Assembly: GCA_027604505.1 (NCBI GenBank)
Contig: JADIIX010000032.1
Span: forward strand, 124,001 to 180,050
DNA length: 56,050 bases
Reading direction: 5' to 3'
Source: Gonapodya sp. JEL0774
Lineage: Eukaryota
In this document: in pieces, positions 15,804 to 56,030 of the stretch
Position numbering within the stretch: the stretch's first letter is position 1
Layout of the letters: each line of letters begins with the position of its first letter
Notes under the pieces: generated by a model
Databases searched by the model: none
What the model saw: the letters and a program-made list of their open reading frames with translations, nothing else
What the model was told of the DNA's origin: nothing
Position numbers and translations under genes: made by a program

Positions 15804-16028
15804 AGAAGTGGGAAGATAATGAATTTGTTTTTAGAATTATGTAGGTGAAAAATATACAAAAGTGTTTGCATTCCGTGGTTTTGTTCACGATGGTGGGAAC
15901 CAAGCAGCCAATAAGGTCATCATCACAAAGGGCTGAAGTGGCACATTCAGTAATGGGCCAAAGCAACCCGGGTATATCAACGATGTCTGTCTCTGTTTCT
16001 TGATCACCCGAGGTCTGATCTCTTTTGC

Positions 16029-17627
16029 TCACCGTAGCTTTCTCACGATCCGCGGGGCAGTGGTTCTCATCACCTCCTTCGGTACAGCTTTCACCACATT
16101 TTTGATCGGTACGGCAACAGGACGGCTCTTCACTGGAGCTCCAAAGTCAAGTTTGGCGGGCCTGGTCCTCTTCGGCGGTTGTGAGCAGAACGGTGACGCC
16201 GTACGCTGATTCAAGAACACAAGGGTCAGTAACGGCGCTACCCACAGAGACACTCAAGAAGACAACCCACCTTGCAAGGGCTCAGACTCGTCTTTACCTT
16301 CTCGACTGCCTTCCCTCTCATTACGCTCGTGGTGGACGCATTCTCGGAGCCTTCTGAGGACAAGCGCGGAGATATGCGGCGGACCAGCTGGACACGAGTC
16401 GATACGGGGTTTAAAGAATTTTGGGTAGTGCTGCGGGCAGTCCCAGGCGGCGTGATCGGCTTCCGTGACGGCACAGCGGCTGGGCGCACAGGTACTGGTG
16501 GAGTAATTGACGGTCGAGAACGCACGGTTGTGGCGCGGACAGAAGCAGAGGGGGGGGAGGTGTTCGAGCGGGCAATGGTGACAGCGGTGCGGACAGTAGC
16601 GGAAGAAGATATTGTTGAAGGAGAGGAGCGAGTGCGAGGGGGAACGGTGGGAGTTGTACGAGCGAGGGGCACGGCAACGGGAAAAGTCGAGTTGGAAGTC
16701 GCAGCGCTCTTAGAGGTGGTACGGATGGGTCTCGGTGGGGGTGCGGGAGTGGTGCGAGAGGGAGGCGTTGCGGACGTTGGAGGGCGCGTGCGCACGGAGG
16801 GTGTAGGGCTACCGCCAGGCTTTGATAAGGTCATGACAGGAGAGTTTCCTCGAGACTTTGCTGATGCTGGTTTGGCGGTGGTAGTCTGCGGAGGAGATAT
16901 TGAGGAGGTCGTGAGATTCCAATTGGAAGGAAGTAACCTATCATGGTAGACTCACGGGTGTCATAATCCTCGAGGTCGAGATTTTAGCCCTGGCTTCAGT
17001 CCGCTCCACTACCTGTTCGACCTCAAATGCCGCAGACAGATCCTGCAGAGGTTCCGCGTCCAGCGCGCGAGCCTGACCCTCCTCTCCAGCCTTTTTGGGC
17101 TTCTCCGAAGTCTCCATCTTCGGTTTTGGATCATTTAGGAACAGTCCTGTCACAGGACACCGATTCTCCTTGTCCCAGATGTGGCGAGAGCATGGGCATC
17201 GGGTGGGATGGTCGGGGTGCACGCAAGAGCACGATTGAGATGGAGGAGGTTCTGGAGAATCGCTGCGGATCGGGGGGTTGGTGATTGACTTTCTAGGAGC
17301 GGCTTTGGCGGTCGCATAGGCGAGTGGAGGTTTGGGGCTGTTCGACGCTGACAACGGTCTGGATGGCTTAAGCGGCGCCGCGACAGGCGATTTCGAGAAC
17401 TGCTTGGGCGCGATTGAGCCGAGAGGAGTGCGTTTAGCAATAGCAGTTTTGCCAGTCATCGATGGTGCAATGGTAGCCTTGAGGTCCTTTGCTGAGAGTG
17501 GTTTGGGAGCGAGGATGTTGGAGTTGGCAGGCCCAAGAGGGCGGAGACCGAGTTTTCTTGCAGGCTGAGACGCAGAGACGGAATCCATATCGGAGAAGAC
17601 AACGAAAGATTTCTTAGTGGAGGTCAT
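16029..17627 (-). CDS. Pro/Ser/Thr/Arg-rich low-complexity protein with putative APC/C degron motifs (3 exons)
   Basis: Three consecutive minus-strand ORFs joined by short introns. Contains FVVFSD (ABBA-like), RTPLGSI (D-box-like) and DKEN. Confidence 0.65.
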
Positions 17628-18278
17628 GGAGTTTCGGACTCGAACGCCGGAATTGGTCCACACTCGTGGAATCTGTAGTGTGTCGAAATGGCGTCGCAGA
17701 TCCGGGTGCGATGGCAGGCGGTCCCTTCGATGCGCGTTAAGAAAGCCGAAATAAAGCGAAATACGCTGGAGAAAATTGGAGATTGGCGGTGGAGCTGCGA
17801 ATTACTAGGGAGTGCTTGGAACTTCGATGGATGGAGGACCCGGCACTCGGAAACTGTCCTGCAAAACTTGCATTTACTTGGACGAAAGCAACTTTGGCAA
17901 AAGTTCCACAGTATCAAGATTGCACCTCCTCGCCATTTTGTGAGTCTCTGAGTCCACATACCAAATGCAGGAAACCGGTAGTGGACGATCCGCGATTCCC
18001 AACTCGAATAGATTCTATTGGTAGATGAGAGTCCTCAGACAATCTCAAACTGTTCAAAAGGTTCGAGGTGGTAGACGTACAGAAGAAGGCCTTGGGATTT
18101 TTAAAACTTATTTGCAGAATGAGCGTGCGCGAACTACATATGGGCGAACTTCATATGGGGTATGGCGCAGGTCGTACAGCGACCAGTTTAAGTTGTTGAC
18201 GGGCATCGGACGACTGACTATGTAAACTTATGTATTATCCATTGCACTTGACTTAACATTTCTCCTACTACAATGTAA

Positions 18279-18373
18279 GGCGAGCCTTTCGCCGCCACCC
18301 AGATCTCAAGAATGGAGACATGGGCTGACGTTTCCAGAGTGCGCGACGTGGACGCCGCTCGCCAAGGCACCCC
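18279..18373 (-). ncRNA. HDV-like self-cleaving ribozyme, copy A
   Basis: Minus strand: P1 GGGGTGC/GCACTCT (G1-U wobble), P2 GGCGAGC/GCTCGCC, P3 GCG/CGC, L3 TCCACGT, P1.1 CC/GG, a P4 hairpin, and J4/2 GCGAAA with the catalytic-C equivalent at 18291. Predicted cut between 18374 and 18373. Confidence 0.85.
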
Positions 18374-18930
18374 ATCCTGCGGTTCCTCGGTCCTGGGAAT
18401 CCTCGGTCCGGCCAAGTGCCAACCCTCTCCTAGGGCGTCGTGCTGGAACGCACGCAGTGGGTTGGTCCGCCGACCCGGAGGTCATTGGACAGCAACACTG
18501 TGACTGTAGCCGTTTGTCCGTCAGCACAATGACCGTCCCGCAGGCGGACACGACCAAGACGACGCGGCTGTGTACACCACTGTTCCCTCCGACGGGAAAA
18601 GGCCCGCCTCGAACTCACCAGGGCCTGTTCTCGTGTCATCTCCTGCTCTCCAGTACTCCAGTACTCGATGGCTCTTGGGTCCGATGGGCGGGGGTGGTTC
18701 GGGATCTGGTGAGTTCGAGCGGACGCAAGAAACGGAAGCTAAGATGAGATTCGTCGCCAAGCAGGTTCAAGAGAACACGCCACGTAAGTGCGTTCCACTT
18801 GCGTTGGTGTTTGGTCGTCTTTTTGGGCTTTTAAAAGTTGGAAAGTTGAGAAGTTGTTTTAGTTTGAAACGGTTTTCGATGACCCAGCAGGAATTTATAC
18901 CCTTGAGTACTGTGGCGCGGCAGCTCGGGG
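18279..18930 (-). repeat. Ribozyme-terminated dispersed unit A (putative spliced ncRNA gene)
   Basis: Collinear homology with 55351-56030 (blocks TTCAAACTAAA, ACTTTCCAACT, CACCAGATCCCGA, CAGGAGATGA, TTCCCGTCGGAGGGAACAGTGGT, GGGTCGGCGGAC, CCACTGCGTGCG). Putative GC-AG intron 18802-18739. TATAAA at 18899-18894. Confidence 0.8.
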
Positions 18931-19263
18931 TTCAACGTTTCAACCATTGAAACAATTCAGACTGGACCTGGAGACCGCTCGATTGCTTTCAAAAAATTTG
19001 CGAATATTAACAAAAAATGGTCTCGTCCAAATGGGAGCTTCTGGCGTTGCAGTTGGAAGCCGTGATAGCGGGTTTTCAATCAAATCAGCGGAACATCATT
19101 CCTCCAGGGTTCACGAACTGCCGAATTGAATGAAATAAGTGACTTATGGTTTGGTGATTGGGTAATTCTGTACCCCCCGATCAGGTGTTTACTGTGAGTC
19201 GTCACTGCGTGCTTAAGAGCACGTCGCCCCGGAGAAGTACTGGACCAGGAAGGGGATACGGAC

Positions 19264-19355
19264 GGGGTGCCTTGGCGAGCGGCGTCCACGTCGCGCACCC
19301 TGGAAACGACATCGTTGTCTCTTCGAGAGGCAACGGTGGCGGCGAAAGGCTCGCC
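19264..19355 (+). ncRNA. HDV-like self-cleaving ribozyme, copy B
   Basis: P1 19264-19270/19295-19301 (GGGGTGC/GCACCCT), P2 19274-19280/19349-19355, P3 19282-19284/19292-19294, L3 TCCACGT, P1.1 19286-19287/19302-19303, P4 19307-19322/19326-19341, catalytic-C equivalent 19343. Upstream homology to copies A/C begins at ~19203. Confidence 0.88.
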
Positions 19356-19641
19356 TACCATTGTATAATTAGATACCTCTAGTAGATACACATTATTGCC
19401 CAAGTACTCCTGAGAACTTCGGATGTCCGGCCCGGTCGAATGTACACTCGTGGTTGACAGTCTCCGCTGCAAGGCCCCTTCTGTTTACCCTCTCACCACG
19501 AAACACTGCGAAGTAAGTAGTCAGGCGCGAGACGACGCGTCGGCGTCCCACTTCCCAGCAGCCCGATACTTCTCGCCCACTGCCCATTTCCACAACAACT
19601 TACTCTGCCCCCACCCCTCGCACTGTCCCGTCTACCCCGCT

Positions 19642-25479: not shown

Positions 25480-26890
25480 ACGCATGAATGCCCATCCCTT
25501 CTCAATGTGGAGCTGAGGGATGACGGGGATGCGGCTGGGGAGCTGTATATCGGTCCCTCTGCGGCGATTAGGCGGGTGATGATGTTTCGCCGGTGGAAGA
25601 GGATGCAAACTGGTGGGAACGGTGGCTTGGATGGGGGATCGTGTCCCGTTTAGGGAATGATGGTTGCGGGAAAGGTCACCGTGCTTGTCGGACGGGAGTT
25701 TTGCGAGAATGGCCACGGCGAGGAGGCGGTGGGTTTGCACAACTCCAGTCAAGTCGGATTGCTACCGTATTGGATGGCTACATTGGGTGGACAGATGCGC
25801 CTGAGGGAGGACCCGGACCCGGACTCAGAAACCGCAGACAAAGACACAGAGACAACAATCATCCCCGCCGCTTCTGCCCGCGTGCAAGCCCTCCGGTTCC
25901 ATCCACTTGTCTCGCAAAATTCCGCCAACGTACACTTGTTTGCAAGTGTGCCGAACCTGACTCGGTTTGTCCAATCCGCGCACCCGGTAGCTCTCTCACT
26001 CTTTCGGTCATGCCCTCCGTCGGGCACTTCTTCGTCGTGCGCCAACCTATCCTACCGGCCCTTCCCGACTTGCCCTCGGTCACATCCCTCCATATCTCGC
26101 CGCACACCTCGGAGAGCGATCCCTGCAGGGACCCCGAACTCCATACCACAATTGATATCTTTGCCGTGCTTCACCGACTCCCAAAAGTCGCCTCTCTCCA
26201 CCTCCCTCCACCTTAACCACGTGCAACTGGACCGCGAGCTCGTTGACCCCCTTATAGGCGACCTTGTGCCGATGAGCTCCGTACCAACATGCCTTGCCTC
26301 TCTCTCATCCTTTACCGCGTTCCCCTTCGTCCGCGAGGACGAACTTCGCGTTTACCTCTTCCTTGCCAGACTCGTGCCCCGACTGACTGTCCTGGGACCT
26401 TTGCCCGTGACACTCGTGTTGGCTTGCACGTTGGAACTGACCATTCTGGATACACAGTACGGGAGGCGTCATGTGAGGGAGGTGGGGCTCTGCGTGACTC
26501 TGTTGAACGCGATTACCCCCACCGTCATGCGAAATGAGGTAGTGGCTGTGAGGTGGGCAATGGAAGTGTTTGCACCCAGCGTGCACAGAGTGAAGTACGT
26601 TTACGGAACGGTTCCACTTTGATCCAGATAGGACCTTGCCAGAGCATCTGATGGATGAGATGGCGGGCGTGTGGGTGACCTTTCTAGTACGGGGGATCTG
26701 CGGTCCAGTCGTGGAGAAGGAAGTGGCCTGGGAGGTGAAACTGGAGTACTAACAGCCTGATCCTCAAAGCGTGTTCCATGGTGCGCCAATGCTGTCGGTA
26801 CAGCTTGCAGAGATACTGAAATCGAGGGTGACGGTTGCTGGTGGGACGTGTGTAAGGAGGGTGTGGGCTGGTGGGACGTGTGTAAACAGG
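25480..26890 (+). pseudogene. Decayed paralog of the adjacent F-box gene
   Basis: FRRWKRMQTGGNGGLDG, LRFHPLV, LPSVTSLHISPH and PTCLASLSSFT align with 27754-29277. In-frame TAG at 25651-25653, homology switches frame twice (~26050, ~26205), and the F-box N-terminus is missing. Confidence 0.8.
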
Positions 26891-27477: not shown

Positions 27478-27753
27478 GGAATTGCCCAGTTCATCGGTGT
27501 TGTTTCCCTTCCCATGCCCCACCCTTCCACCACCAGTACACCCAAAGCGCTGAGAAGTCACAAAGTGGCGCCAATATTAGTTGAACTGTGCGGTGGCTGA
27601 CGTGGTTAGTACATGCTTTGGCGGGAACTGGGAGTCGTCCATTAAACTCTCCCCAACTGTGAAGTCACACCAAAAAAAGTCACAAAAGTCACACGCACGC
27701 GTCCCTCCTTGCTTTCCAACCGTCAATCCAACCGTCAAGTCCAGTCGCTGCCC

Positions 27754-29277
27754 ATGGTACCCGCCTCCCTTCTTAACCTTCCCCTCGAACTGCTCAACTC
27801 CATCCTCGTTCGCACCGACCCCCGCACTGTCTTTAAGACACTCCGCCGAACTTGCACGTCACTGGCGGATCTCACATGGCTTGGGGCGTGTGGACGAGTG
27901 CCCGTCGAGGTGGAGGTGGAGGTGAGGGATGAGCAGGAGTTTTATTGCAGGAAGAGTGAATTGGATCCAGGGGCGATCGTTGCGGGCGTTAAAATTTTTG
28001 GCCGGTGGAAAAGAAAACATAGCGGAACTGGTGGTGGATTGGGCGGGGCATGGAGCTCGAAGGAGTTTGTGGTAGGAGCAAAGATGTCGGTGGTGGTAGG
28101 ACGCGCATTTTTCGCGAACGAGACGGACGGGTCGAAACCGGTTGTGCAGGGAAATTCCCAAGTATCAGAACCCTGGATGGCCGCACTGGGTCGGGAAATG
28201 CGGCGAACGCTGTGCACAGACACTGGCAACTCAGTTCCTGAACGACGCCTCTCGTTCCACCCGATGGTGACCCGCGTGGTTACAGGCGCGCACTACTTTT
28301 CATCGTTGCCGAACCTTAAGTACTTCACCGTGGCCGCTGACCCACGAGAGCTCGTACTTTCTGTGGCGCGCCCTTCCCGATCGACTTCTCGCACCATCCC
28401 TACCCTGCCCTCCGTCACATCCCTCCGCATACTCCCTCATATTTCAACCGCGACCGAGTCATTCATCTATGTTGACCTTTTTCCCTACCTGGAGAACCTC
28501 CCCTCACTTACCTCTGTCGACCTTGTTCACACACATCTTAACAAGGACATCGTCACGTGTCTCGCCGGCAACCCCAACCCCGCGTCCCCTTTACCAACTT
28601 GCCTCTCTTCCATCACATCCTTCACCGTTTCCCCGGTCATCCACCGCGACCAAGTCATTCCATATCTGAACCTCGCAACATTTCTACCTCGATTGCGAAC
28701 CATTGGATCCTTACCCGTTTCCCCATGGAGTAGGCAGATGCTCGAGGAACTTGCGGCCACAGAGAGCTCAGAGTTGCGGGCTGTTCTGCGGGGAGTGAAG
28801 GAGATGACGTTTTTCATGACTCGGTGGCATTTCGAACAGTCAGTGATGCAGAACTCTGTGATGGGGATGAAACAGGGTTTAAAGGTGGTTCTTCCTGGGT
28901 TAGAACGGATGAGGATCGTGCTTTCCGCGTCTTCGCATGGTGGATGGGGAAGGGACGCGGGTGCGAGCAGCGACAGTTTACGGTTGGAGGGGGTAGTGGA
29001 CGCTTTGGCACCTTTGGTGGTGCGGAGTGGGAGAGAGTTGGTGGTAGGAAGTGGTCACGGCACCGACCACGATACCGAGAACTCTGTGACAGAGATGGAG
29101 CCAGGCAGGAGTGAAGTGTGCGCGGACAGCAGCTGGACAGTCATTCTCGCAAGTTACGACGAGGATACGAACCCAGAGTTTCGAAGTGCACCCATCAAGT
29201 TGGTTCGCCTGGCGAAGATGTTGGAAGAAAGAGTGGTGGAGTCCGGTGGCATGTGTGTGAACGAGGTGTTGGAGTAG
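27754..29277 (+). CDS. Intronless F-box domain protein with degenerate LRR-like region
   Basis: N-terminal LLNLPLELLNSILVRTDPRTVFKTLRRTCTSL (F-box pattern), plus LPSVTSLRI / LPSLTSVDL / LPRLRTI repeats. Confidence 0.75.
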   Translation: MVPASLLNLPLELLNSILVRTDPRTVFKTLRRTCTSLADLTWLGACGRVPVEVEVEVRDEQEFYCRKSELDPGAIVAGVKIFGRWKRKHSGTGGGLGGAWSSKEFVVGAKMSVVVGRAFFANETDGSKPVVQGNSQVSEPWMAALGREMRRTLCTDTGNSVPERRLSFHPMVTRVVTGAHYFSSLPNLKYFTVAADPRELVLSVARPSRSTSRTIPTLPSVTSLRILPHISTATESFIYVDLFPYLENLPSLTSVDLVHTHLNKDIVTCLAGNPNPASPLPTCLSSITSFTVSPVIHRDQVIPYLNLATFLPRLRTIGSLPVSPWSRQMLEELAATESSELRAVLRGVKEMTFFMTRWHFEQSVMQNSVMGMKQGLKVVLPGLERMRIVLSASSHGGWGRDAGASSDSLRLEGVVDALAPLVVRSGRELVVGSGHGTDHDTENSVTEMEPGRSEVCADSSWTVILASYDEDTNPEFRSAPIKLVRLAKMLEERVVESGGMCVNEVLE

Positions 29278-54724: not shown

Positions 54725-55350
54725 AGGGGTGGGGAAGGGAGGGGAAGGTGGAGGGGGGGAAAGGGGATTGTGTGGGATGAGGGAGGGGAAGGGGAAGGGG
54801 AAGGGAGATGTGTAGGTAGAGGAACCACCATTGCGCACATACAGCATATTTGCCAAAAAACCAAGCCCAAGCATGACATGGGAGATGTGAGCACCGCGGA
54901 ACCGACTCTGTGGTGCGTTGTAGTGTCGTGGATGAAGGCGTCTGCGTGGGTAGGGAAGAGCTTTTGTGGGGATTGGGGTGCATGGATGCGTGTAAGTATC
55001 GTGTGTGGATTGTGGGGCAAAAGCAAAAGACCTCACAGTGCGCACGAGTCCGGCGAGCACGCGGTCGTACATCGTGTCCAAACGCCATTTCCATGTGCTT
55101 TCATGACGTGTCTGCGTACCCTCTCGTCTATACAGTCCTGAGATCGTGACCGGTTGTGGTAGTGGTCTCGTCATGTGCCCACAGGCCGAGCGCCACCGAA
55201 CGAGAAGAACCACACACACGACCGACCAAGACTTATCAGGCTGGAGGGGAAGTCGTCGGGGCAGGATCCAGCATCTCACGATTTGATTATGCAACACGTC
55301 GTCTATTCCGTATTGCTGCTATTAGCCTCTCATTACTGATACAAGGTATG

Positions 55351-55444
55351 GGCTAGCCTTTCGCCGCCAGTCCCCGTCCGATGACGAGACGAGGGCCGAC
55401 GTTTCCAGGGTGCGCGACGTGGACGCCGCTCGCCAAGGCACCCC
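55351..55444 (-). ncRNA. HDV-like self-cleaving ribozyme, copy C
   Basis: Minus strand: P1 GGGGTGC/GCACCCT, P2 GGCGAGC/GCTAGCC (one G-A mismatch), P3 GCG/CGC, L3 TCCACGT, GG for P1.1, P4 CGTCGG-C-CCTCGTCT/GGACGGGG-A-CTGGCG, and J4/2 GCGAAA (C at 55363). Confidence 0.82.
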
Positions 55445-56030
55445 GTCCTGCGGTTCCTCGGTCCTGCGAGTCCTCGGTCAGGTCACATGCCTTCCCTCTC
55501 CTCCCCTACTCCCCCCTCCGTCCCCCTGGGCGACATGCTCGACGCACGCAGTGGGGTTCGTCCGCCGACCCGAAGGTTTTTGCACAGAAACTCTTTTGAC
55601 GCGGGTCAAGCGCCTCTCGGGCACACGGGCCTCCGGACGATGAGGCCTGGTCATAGACCACTGTTCCCTCCGACGGGAATGGGGCCCAACTCCCCATACG
55701 AACGCCTAGTCCGGGAATCGTCTCATCTCCTGTCCTCCAGTTACTCCACTTCTGCGCTAATCGGTGACGCGTGGGCATGATGGGTAGGGGTGGGTCGGGA
55801 TCTGGTGGTTTGCAGCGGGTGCAAAATACGGATGCCTGATGAGACTCGTCGGACGAGCGGCCGCAGAGGAAGGCGAACGTAACTCGCACGTAAACAGTGC
55901 TTACGTTGGCCGGCCCTGTTGGATGTTTGAAGTCGGAATAGTTGGAAAGTGGTTTAGTTTGAAGGAGTTTTTGTGGGGGCGAAAACCTGTATAGGTTTTT
56001 GCCCGGCTCATGTGCCGCTGCGGTTCGAGG
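55351..56030 (-). repeat. Ribozyme-terminated dispersed unit C (putative spliced ncRNA gene)
   Basis: Collinear homology with 18279-18930. Putative GT-AG intron 55904-55836 at the same position as in unit A. Confidence 0.8.

Follow-up and report, generated by a model that had tools for sequence, protein, structure and literature searches.

Gonapodya is a zoosporic fungus, and the stretch of its DNA given above raises the question of whether an HDV-like ribozyme can form the 3' end of a repeated, spliced and apparently non-coding RNA, as had been proposed from the letters of this locus (hereafter the original prediction). The window analysed here is the whole stretch of 56,050 nt. A DPH1 fragment in it matches a public Gonapodya protein at 100% identity, with G. 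prolifera next at 71%. Self-comparison of the window returned one repeat family of note, made of copies A, B and C. Copies A (18269-18756) and B (55340-55851) are 69% identical, and copy C was detected as an inverted 109-nt match (19260-19365) to A, 83% alike, lying about 270 bp upstream of it, a neighbour that the original prediction leaves unmentioned. The window ends 20 nt upstream of copy B's 56030 limit, and the long copies in hand are two, A and B. The coordinates of all features are collected in Table 1. Around the family, GC content rises from about 50% to 52-60% from window position 16000-17000 or so rightward, where introns are also longer and of low complexity. Two neighbouring ORFs on the plus strand (25654-26619 and 27646-29274) are paralogous, being 31% identical over 318 residues, and have no Pfam family.

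Table 1 Features of the repeated unit in the window, with the observation on which each is placed.
Feature	Positions	Strand	Basis
Shared terminal word C[A/C]TTGTA, end of homology	18269..18275	-	Alignments; A/B homology absent beyond
Copy A HDV-like ribozyme	18279..18373	-	All helices paired; descriptor match; P4 z -3.3
Purine-rich tail from module to cut, ending GGAY in 3/3 copies	18374..18432	-	Alignment
Hairpin module, 27 nt, with 5-bp stem	18433..18459	-	3 matches, 0 expected (search pattern drawn from the copies themselves)
Candidate second intron: GTGAGT 18618, CTGAC 18524, CAG 18504	18504..18618	-	Inferred
Frame open in both A and B, without AUG; chance or decayed ORF	18524..18739	-	No homologue
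23-nt island, the same in A as in B, that contains a short hairpin	18576..18598	-	Sequence comparison
97-nt candidate for the first intron, with a GC donor, the branch-like word CTCAT and a CAG in register	18706..18802	-	Host-intron comparison
Candidate first exon, A/C-rich, without ATG; start site guessed	18803..18878	-	A/B homology z 5.8
Candidate promoter: TATAAA 18899-18894 and shared 20-nt motif 18911-18930	18894..18930	-	15/20, p 0.0004
Copy C (short, inverted): ribozyme at 19264-19355, preceded by the module (19203-19229) and followed by the terminal word (19359-19365)	19203..19365	+
Copy B: ribozyme 55444-55351, module 55528-55553, candidate intron 55904-55802	55340..56030	-

Each of the three copies pairs as a nested double pseudoknot with P1, P1.1, P2, P3 and P4. 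P1 comprises 7 bp with a G.U pair at +1 in all copies, P2 comprises 7 bp with a single G.A mismatch confined to B, P3 comprises 3 bp and P1.1 is CC/GG; one extra G separates P2 from P3 in 3/3 copies. The P4 region, 35-38 nt long, forms a regular stem, and loop E was not seen in it. J4/2 reads C-G-A-A-A in every copy, in line with the cytosine followed by N-A-A that marks the class, and the catalytic C of copy A is predicted at 18291. Cleavage is predicted between 18374 and 18373 (A), 55445 and 55444 (B), and 19263 and 19264 (C). A generic HDV descriptor built without the stem letters of the copies gave only three matches over the window, at A (18373-18279, minus strand), B (55444-55351, minus strand) and C (19264-19355, plus strand); with the same descriptor, 100 dinucleotide-shuffled windows yielded 2 matches in total. 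Pairing was found in 82 of 84 cells across the three copies (97.6%), versus 31-48% when the sequences were slid. The core contains 0 two-sided changes because it is nearly invariant. The letters of P4 are rewritten in each copy and all three versions still fold (z -3.3 for A, -2.7 for B and -4.1 for C), which points to selection on ribozyme structure or activity and is the best sign of such selection. Rfam scans gave no HDV-family match, either at the gathering score or at E<=10. When only nested folding was allowed, so that pseudoknots lay outside the model, the flanks competed with P1, whose probability was 0.0 (A), 0.02 (B) and 1.0 (C). The fold, the descriptor match and the pairing bear out the sequence motif of an HDV-like ribozyme in copy A, with its predicted cut after 18374. 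At the level of sequence, A, B and C are well-formed HDV-like motifs and a new member of a known ribozyme class.

Homology between the copies ends about 10 nt after P2, at the word C[A/C]TTGTA. Over the next 200 nt, the alignment of A with B is no better than that of shuffles (z 1.6), and the boundary is where it had been placed; the DNA beyond it, described as AT-rich, is so after A (44% GC) but not after B (54% GC). This downstream DNA is unrelated among the copies and runs into host genes: A is followed in tandem by a same-strand orphan ORF rich in Ser and Pro, B faces the convergent end of RPS3A about 615 bp away, and C faces that of a methyltransferase gene about 280 bp away. No RT or endonuclease family was found in the 37 long frames scanned of the 65 listed, and no poly(A) run occurs in the 3' flanks of the copies, in agreement with the earlier observation that neither an RT/endonuclease ORF nor a poly(A) tail is present. 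Upstream of the cut, homology between A and B extends over about 550 nt, every segment tested aligning to about 18930. Alignment z was 24 for 18739-18374, 3.1 for 18803-18740, 5.8 for 18904-18804 and 2.3 for a fourth segment; the motif at 18911-18930 is identical to 56011-56030 in 15 of 20 positions (p 0.0004). Both the upstream homology and the shared motif of the original prediction were thus recovered.

The hairpin module precedes the cut in all three copies, at a distance of 59 nt (A), 83 nt (B) and 34 nt (C), and its stem is paired in 15 of 15 cells across copies. Copy C keeps both module and ribozyme though its further upstream DNA (18941-19202) aligns to neither A nor B, so that the two elements travel together. 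Since the module is kept before the cut in 3/3 copies, the conserved product would be the upstream piece, and the arrangement points to the 3' end of the upstream fragment as the thing being kept. The geometry had been described as the opposite of that of ribozymes at the head of LINEs, with the shared sequence lying upstream, and the position of the module strengthens this description. As judged from its sequence, the terminal position of the ribozyme in a repeated, probably spliced and probably non-coding unit is real and would be a new variant in the use of this class.

Beyond the module, the body of the unit is not the structured region that had been described. Whole-region z was -0.54 (A) and +0.12 (B), and only short hairpins or islands are common to the copies. 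Folding of exon 2 gave z +0.13 and +1.01, and the spliced forms +0.45 to +1.41. Because the body is no more stable than shuffles, spliced or unspliced, no conserved fold can be assigned to the supposed product. Among sense-strand windows of 100 nt, 2 of 41 fell below z -2, corresponding to B's donor region and to C's ribozyme. RNAalifold returned two-sided changes in 12 of 88 pairs, which lie in short, poorly aligned helices and, coming from two sequences, are not evidential. Pairing of the GGAY before the cut into P3/L3 as an inhibitor was rejected, its probability being 0.0 in 3/3 copies under nested folding. Separately, the donor regions at 18780-18810 and 55870-55910 carry ACGT-centred palindromic words in both copies, and B's donor region folds well on both strands (z -2.2 and -4.2); this palindromic region could form a hairpin over the donor or be a DNA binding site.

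The TATAAA of the candidate promoter of A is not kept in register in B. Of the position-conserved intron in the original prediction, the candidate donor stands and the acceptor needs revision. Candidate donors are in register, reading AAC/GCAAGT at 18802 (A) and AAC/GTAAGC at 55904 (B). After the donor, the first AGs (18739 and 55836) differ in register by 1 nt and lie no more than 5-7 nt away from CTCAT, a word common to both copies. The acceptor that keeps the register, CACCAG/ATCCCG, is at 18706/55802, 40 and 39 nt from CTCAT. Defined by this acceptor, the intron would span 97 nt (A) or 103 nt (B) around a diverged interior, with 18739 as an alternative acceptor. For comparison, we located by eye 10 introns in genes nearby. 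These measure 65-395 nt, a range that includes both lengths of the unit intron, and 7 of the 10 have a YTNAY word 10-44 nt before their end. Their donors are GTGAGT (6), GTGGGT (2), GTACGT (1) and GTAAGT (1), and neither unit donor matches any of these 10 exactly. A second intron is possible; CTGAC at 18524 is the only YTRAY of A, and the counterpart in B (55699-55593) has weaker signals in register at 55699, 55609 and 55593. The predicted RNA would measure about 408 nt with one intron removed and about 294 nt with two, hence about 300-410 nt overall. This replaces the earlier figure of about 450 nt, which implies use of the first AG (441 nt for A), out of register. On the other strand, a GTGAGT at 19194-19199 is a perfect host-type donor placed just before the module of C and 70 nt before its cut. 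No clear branch site follows it, and it could act as an orphan U1 site suppressing polyadenylation.

Searches outside the window gave no relatives of the unit in viral, metagenome and prokaryote collections. The ribozyme pattern hit 36 metagenome loci, none of which had P1, P2 and P3 all paired and none of which aligned to the unit. The viral patterns gave 2, 5 and 0 loci, the 5 all carrying the same unrelated sequence, which no ribozyme core follows, and the scan of prokaryote genomes gave 0. The generic HDV descriptor flagged 1 of the 43 outside loci fetched, on a viral contig (L001:79-147, plus strand). This segment agrees with copies A, B and C in the core letters of P3/L3/P1.1, has no tRNA near it in 1620 nt of the contig, and is probably a real phage HDV-like ribozyme. 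Another outside locus (L034, minus strand), negative with the descriptor, has an HDV-like core in which P3 and a P4-like stem are paired, and no P1 was found within 80 nt of it. This core lies between exons that we take to resemble those of an animal carboxylase subunit gene.

We consider that these features are best read as a dispersed family of Pol II non-coding genes with ribozyme-made 3' ends, to which we give slightly less than an even chance. The ribozyme likely trims the end of an RNA that is probably spliced and probably encodes no protein, taking the place of a poly(A) tail. Pol II would start near 18880, the spliceosome would remove 18802-18706 and perhaps also 18618-18504, and the ribozyme would fold co-transcriptionally and cut after 18374. 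Cleavage by ribozymes of the HDV class is described, in the available part of PMC5640933, as leaving a 2',3'-cyclic phosphate, and the cut after 18374 would leave such an end on the upstream RNA. The product would be an upstream RNA of roughly 300-410 nt, its end shielded by the hairpin module or by a protein bound to it. The ribozyme piece of roughly 105 nt would be discarded, and read-through into the neighbouring genes would be stopped too. As an old member of the family that has diverged, copy C would retain the 3'-end cassette only. More tentatively, the family may represent a gene class, that of spliced Pol II ncRNAs ended by a built-in HDV-like ribozyme and stabilised by a portable cassette of hairpin module, purine-rich tail and ribozyme, able to join various upstream RNAs, of which C would be an example; we hold this wider proposal to be possible and rather doubtful.

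With everything conserved upstream of the cut, the unit would offer a small, testable case of a ribozyme replacing polyadenylation for a Pol II RNA, with the hairpin module as a named candidate for the stabilising element. According to the portion of PMC6765202 consulted, eukaryotic HDV-like ribozymes with a proposed role for the most part either release a retrotransposon's 5' end or are intronic, and the available part of PMC5640933 counts 230 fungal HDV variants and assigns them no role. The literature searched contained no naturally occurring eukaryotic ncRNA whose end is made by an HDV-like ribozyme, and Webb 2009, Webb & Luptak 2011 and the alignments of Li & Breaker may contain such contexts; the same searches found no publication linking Gonapodya with a ribozyme.

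Instead of a gene family, the unit might be a terminal repeat or non-autonomous remnant of a Penelope-like retroelement, whose RNA template would have its 3' end set by the ribozyme and would keep its introns, C being the copy that was inverted and 5'-truncated. Such elements have an inverted 5'-truncated copy at their 5' end that forms flanking inverted repeats, as well as a promoter and a 5'-UTR intron inside the pLTR (Craig et al., 10.1101/2021.04.23.441226, in the sections at hand). Copy A with the inverted, short C has that shape, and all copies share a 3' end and differ in upstream length. However, in the sections consulted Penelope-like elements (PLEs) carry hammerheads, and the term HDV occurs 0 times in 10.1101/2021.04.23.441226. 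C is not adjacent to A, from which it is separated by DNA unrelated to A or B (18941-19202), and its fully rewritten P4 still folds, which would need long independent selection. No RT or GIY-YIG family was recognised in the 37 frames scanned, there is no tandem partner, and the copies are only 69% alike. We regard this origin as unlikely, though worth keeping in view. If it were true, an HDV-type ribozyme would serve in a Penelope-like role, which was not met in the parts of the Penelope literature consulted, and either outcome, ncRNA family or retroelement, would help explain why fungi keep these ribozymes.

Alternatively, the unit could be a small or decayed protein-coding gene with the ribozyme between its stop codon and a UGUA-type poly(A) element, where cleavage would remove the tail and lower expression. 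UGUA is a poly(A) element, and TTGTA is kept 10 nt after the ribozyme. On the minus strand, A and B share an open frame of 56-61 codons, which net indels of 9 and 6 nt preserve, and dN/dS, a weak signal, is 0.56-0.6 (p 0.04-0.09) in the most favourable block, which was chosen afterwards. A precedent exists in the Clec2 hammerhead (PMC6765202, in part). Against a coding gene, the frame of A stops at 18523 and contains no AUG, no AUG is shared with B, and A and B have no AUG-initiated frame in common under either acceptor. By chance, at least one of six frames would be open in A and B alike 22% of the time. No synonymous excess was observed over the whole exon (18739-18374; synonymous share 0.18 versus 0.21 in permutations). 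The peptide encoded by the open frame has no homologue by sequence search, and the 3 matches of a profile search were rejected as repeat proteins. None of the 3 AUG-started candidate peptides occurs in the protein collection, although the host's annotated DPH1 is present there. The statement that no reading frame is kept between copies is therefore wrong in the letter, one frame being open in both, and probably right in substance. Non-coding is the better reading, and a small or decayed coding gene is, in our judgement, quite improbable. Close by, an ORF of 38 codons at 19017-19133 (plus strand), with an A-rich start context, lies in the AT-rich spacer upstream of C and is absent from the protein collection.

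The span 18269-19365 could also be a MITE-like DNA transposon or DIRS-like remnant, flanked by TA, with the ribozyme in its inverted termini; it starts with TACAATG and ends with CATTGTA, and its arms are 83% alike over 109 nt. Yet the differences between the arms preserve RNA structure, the spacing of the module differs (59 versus 34 nt), the interior lacks a rod-like form and does not repeat the termini, the far end of B falls outside the window, and no transposase family was found in the frames scanned (37 of 65 long frames), which leaves a transposon with very little credibility. A delta-like, ambisense circular RNA was rejected because the interior is not a rod: the circle fold of 18269-19365 pairs only at the ribozyme arms and its interior is branched. 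Telomerase RNA, SRP, RNase P/MRP, U3 and tRNA were likewise discarded, with no Rfam or ARAGORN match and no telomere-template word seen by eye. An origin of the ribozyme as the 5' head of a LINE or SIDE which lost its body after insertion into a repeated target is scarcely credible, although this is the best-known context of eukaryotic HDV-like ribozymes (PMC6765202, available part), as only about 10 nt are common downstream, without a poly(A) tail, the upstream "target" has no Rfam match, and homology crosses the cut site.

The dispersed family of ribozyme-ended non-coding genes, as we prefer to read it, resembles several known systems in part. Similarly to the retrotransposon ribozymes of R2, L1Tc, RTE and Baggins (PMC6765202, excerpts), the Gonapodya copies form the same nested double pseudoknot with a G.U at +1 and a J4/2 C, and are multicopy in a eukaryote. 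In those elements the downstream sequence is conserved and the upstream sequence varies, whereas the reverse holds for the Gonapodya unit, for which neither an RT (37 of 65 long frames scanned) nor a poly(A) tail was found. PLE pseudo-LTRs (PMC4209133 and 10.1101/2021.04.23.441226, both in part) resemble the unit, with its candidate intron and promoter, in combining a ribozyme, an intron and a promoter in a repeat with an inverted 5'-truncated partner. PLEs carry hammerheads and an RT ORF and have the inverted copy directly adjacent, whereas in Gonapodya the Rfam scans gave no hammerhead family, no RT was found in the 37 frames scanned, and C lies behind about 270 bp of unrelated DNA. The hammerhead in the 3'-UTR of Clec2 (PMC6765202, same excerpts) is also found close to the 3' end of a transcript, ahead of what may be a poly(A) element; it belongs to another ribozyme class, and the Gonapodya unit has no established coding frame.

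The fungal HDV variants of Li & Breaker 2017 (PMC5640933, available part) are like the Gonapodya copies in their fungal host and in an extra nucleotide between P2 and P3. Unlike that variant, the Gonapodya copies have G.U instead of C-G at the cut (3/3), a plain P4 without loop E, and G as the extra base, so that they show 1 of the 3 features of the variant, the extra P2/P3 base. The same part of that paper describes variable gene associations for the fungal variants and reports no 3'-end role. Theta ribozymes of gut phages (PMC10879173, in part) are minimal, phage-borne and placed after tRNAs, whereas the Gonapodya ribozymes have a P4 region of 35-38 nt and a eukaryotic host, in a window where ARAGORN found 0 tRNAs. 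Theta ribozymes are likewise HDV-like and so placed that cleavage would form the 3' end of an upstream RNA, and they are the closest published analogue of the job proposed here.
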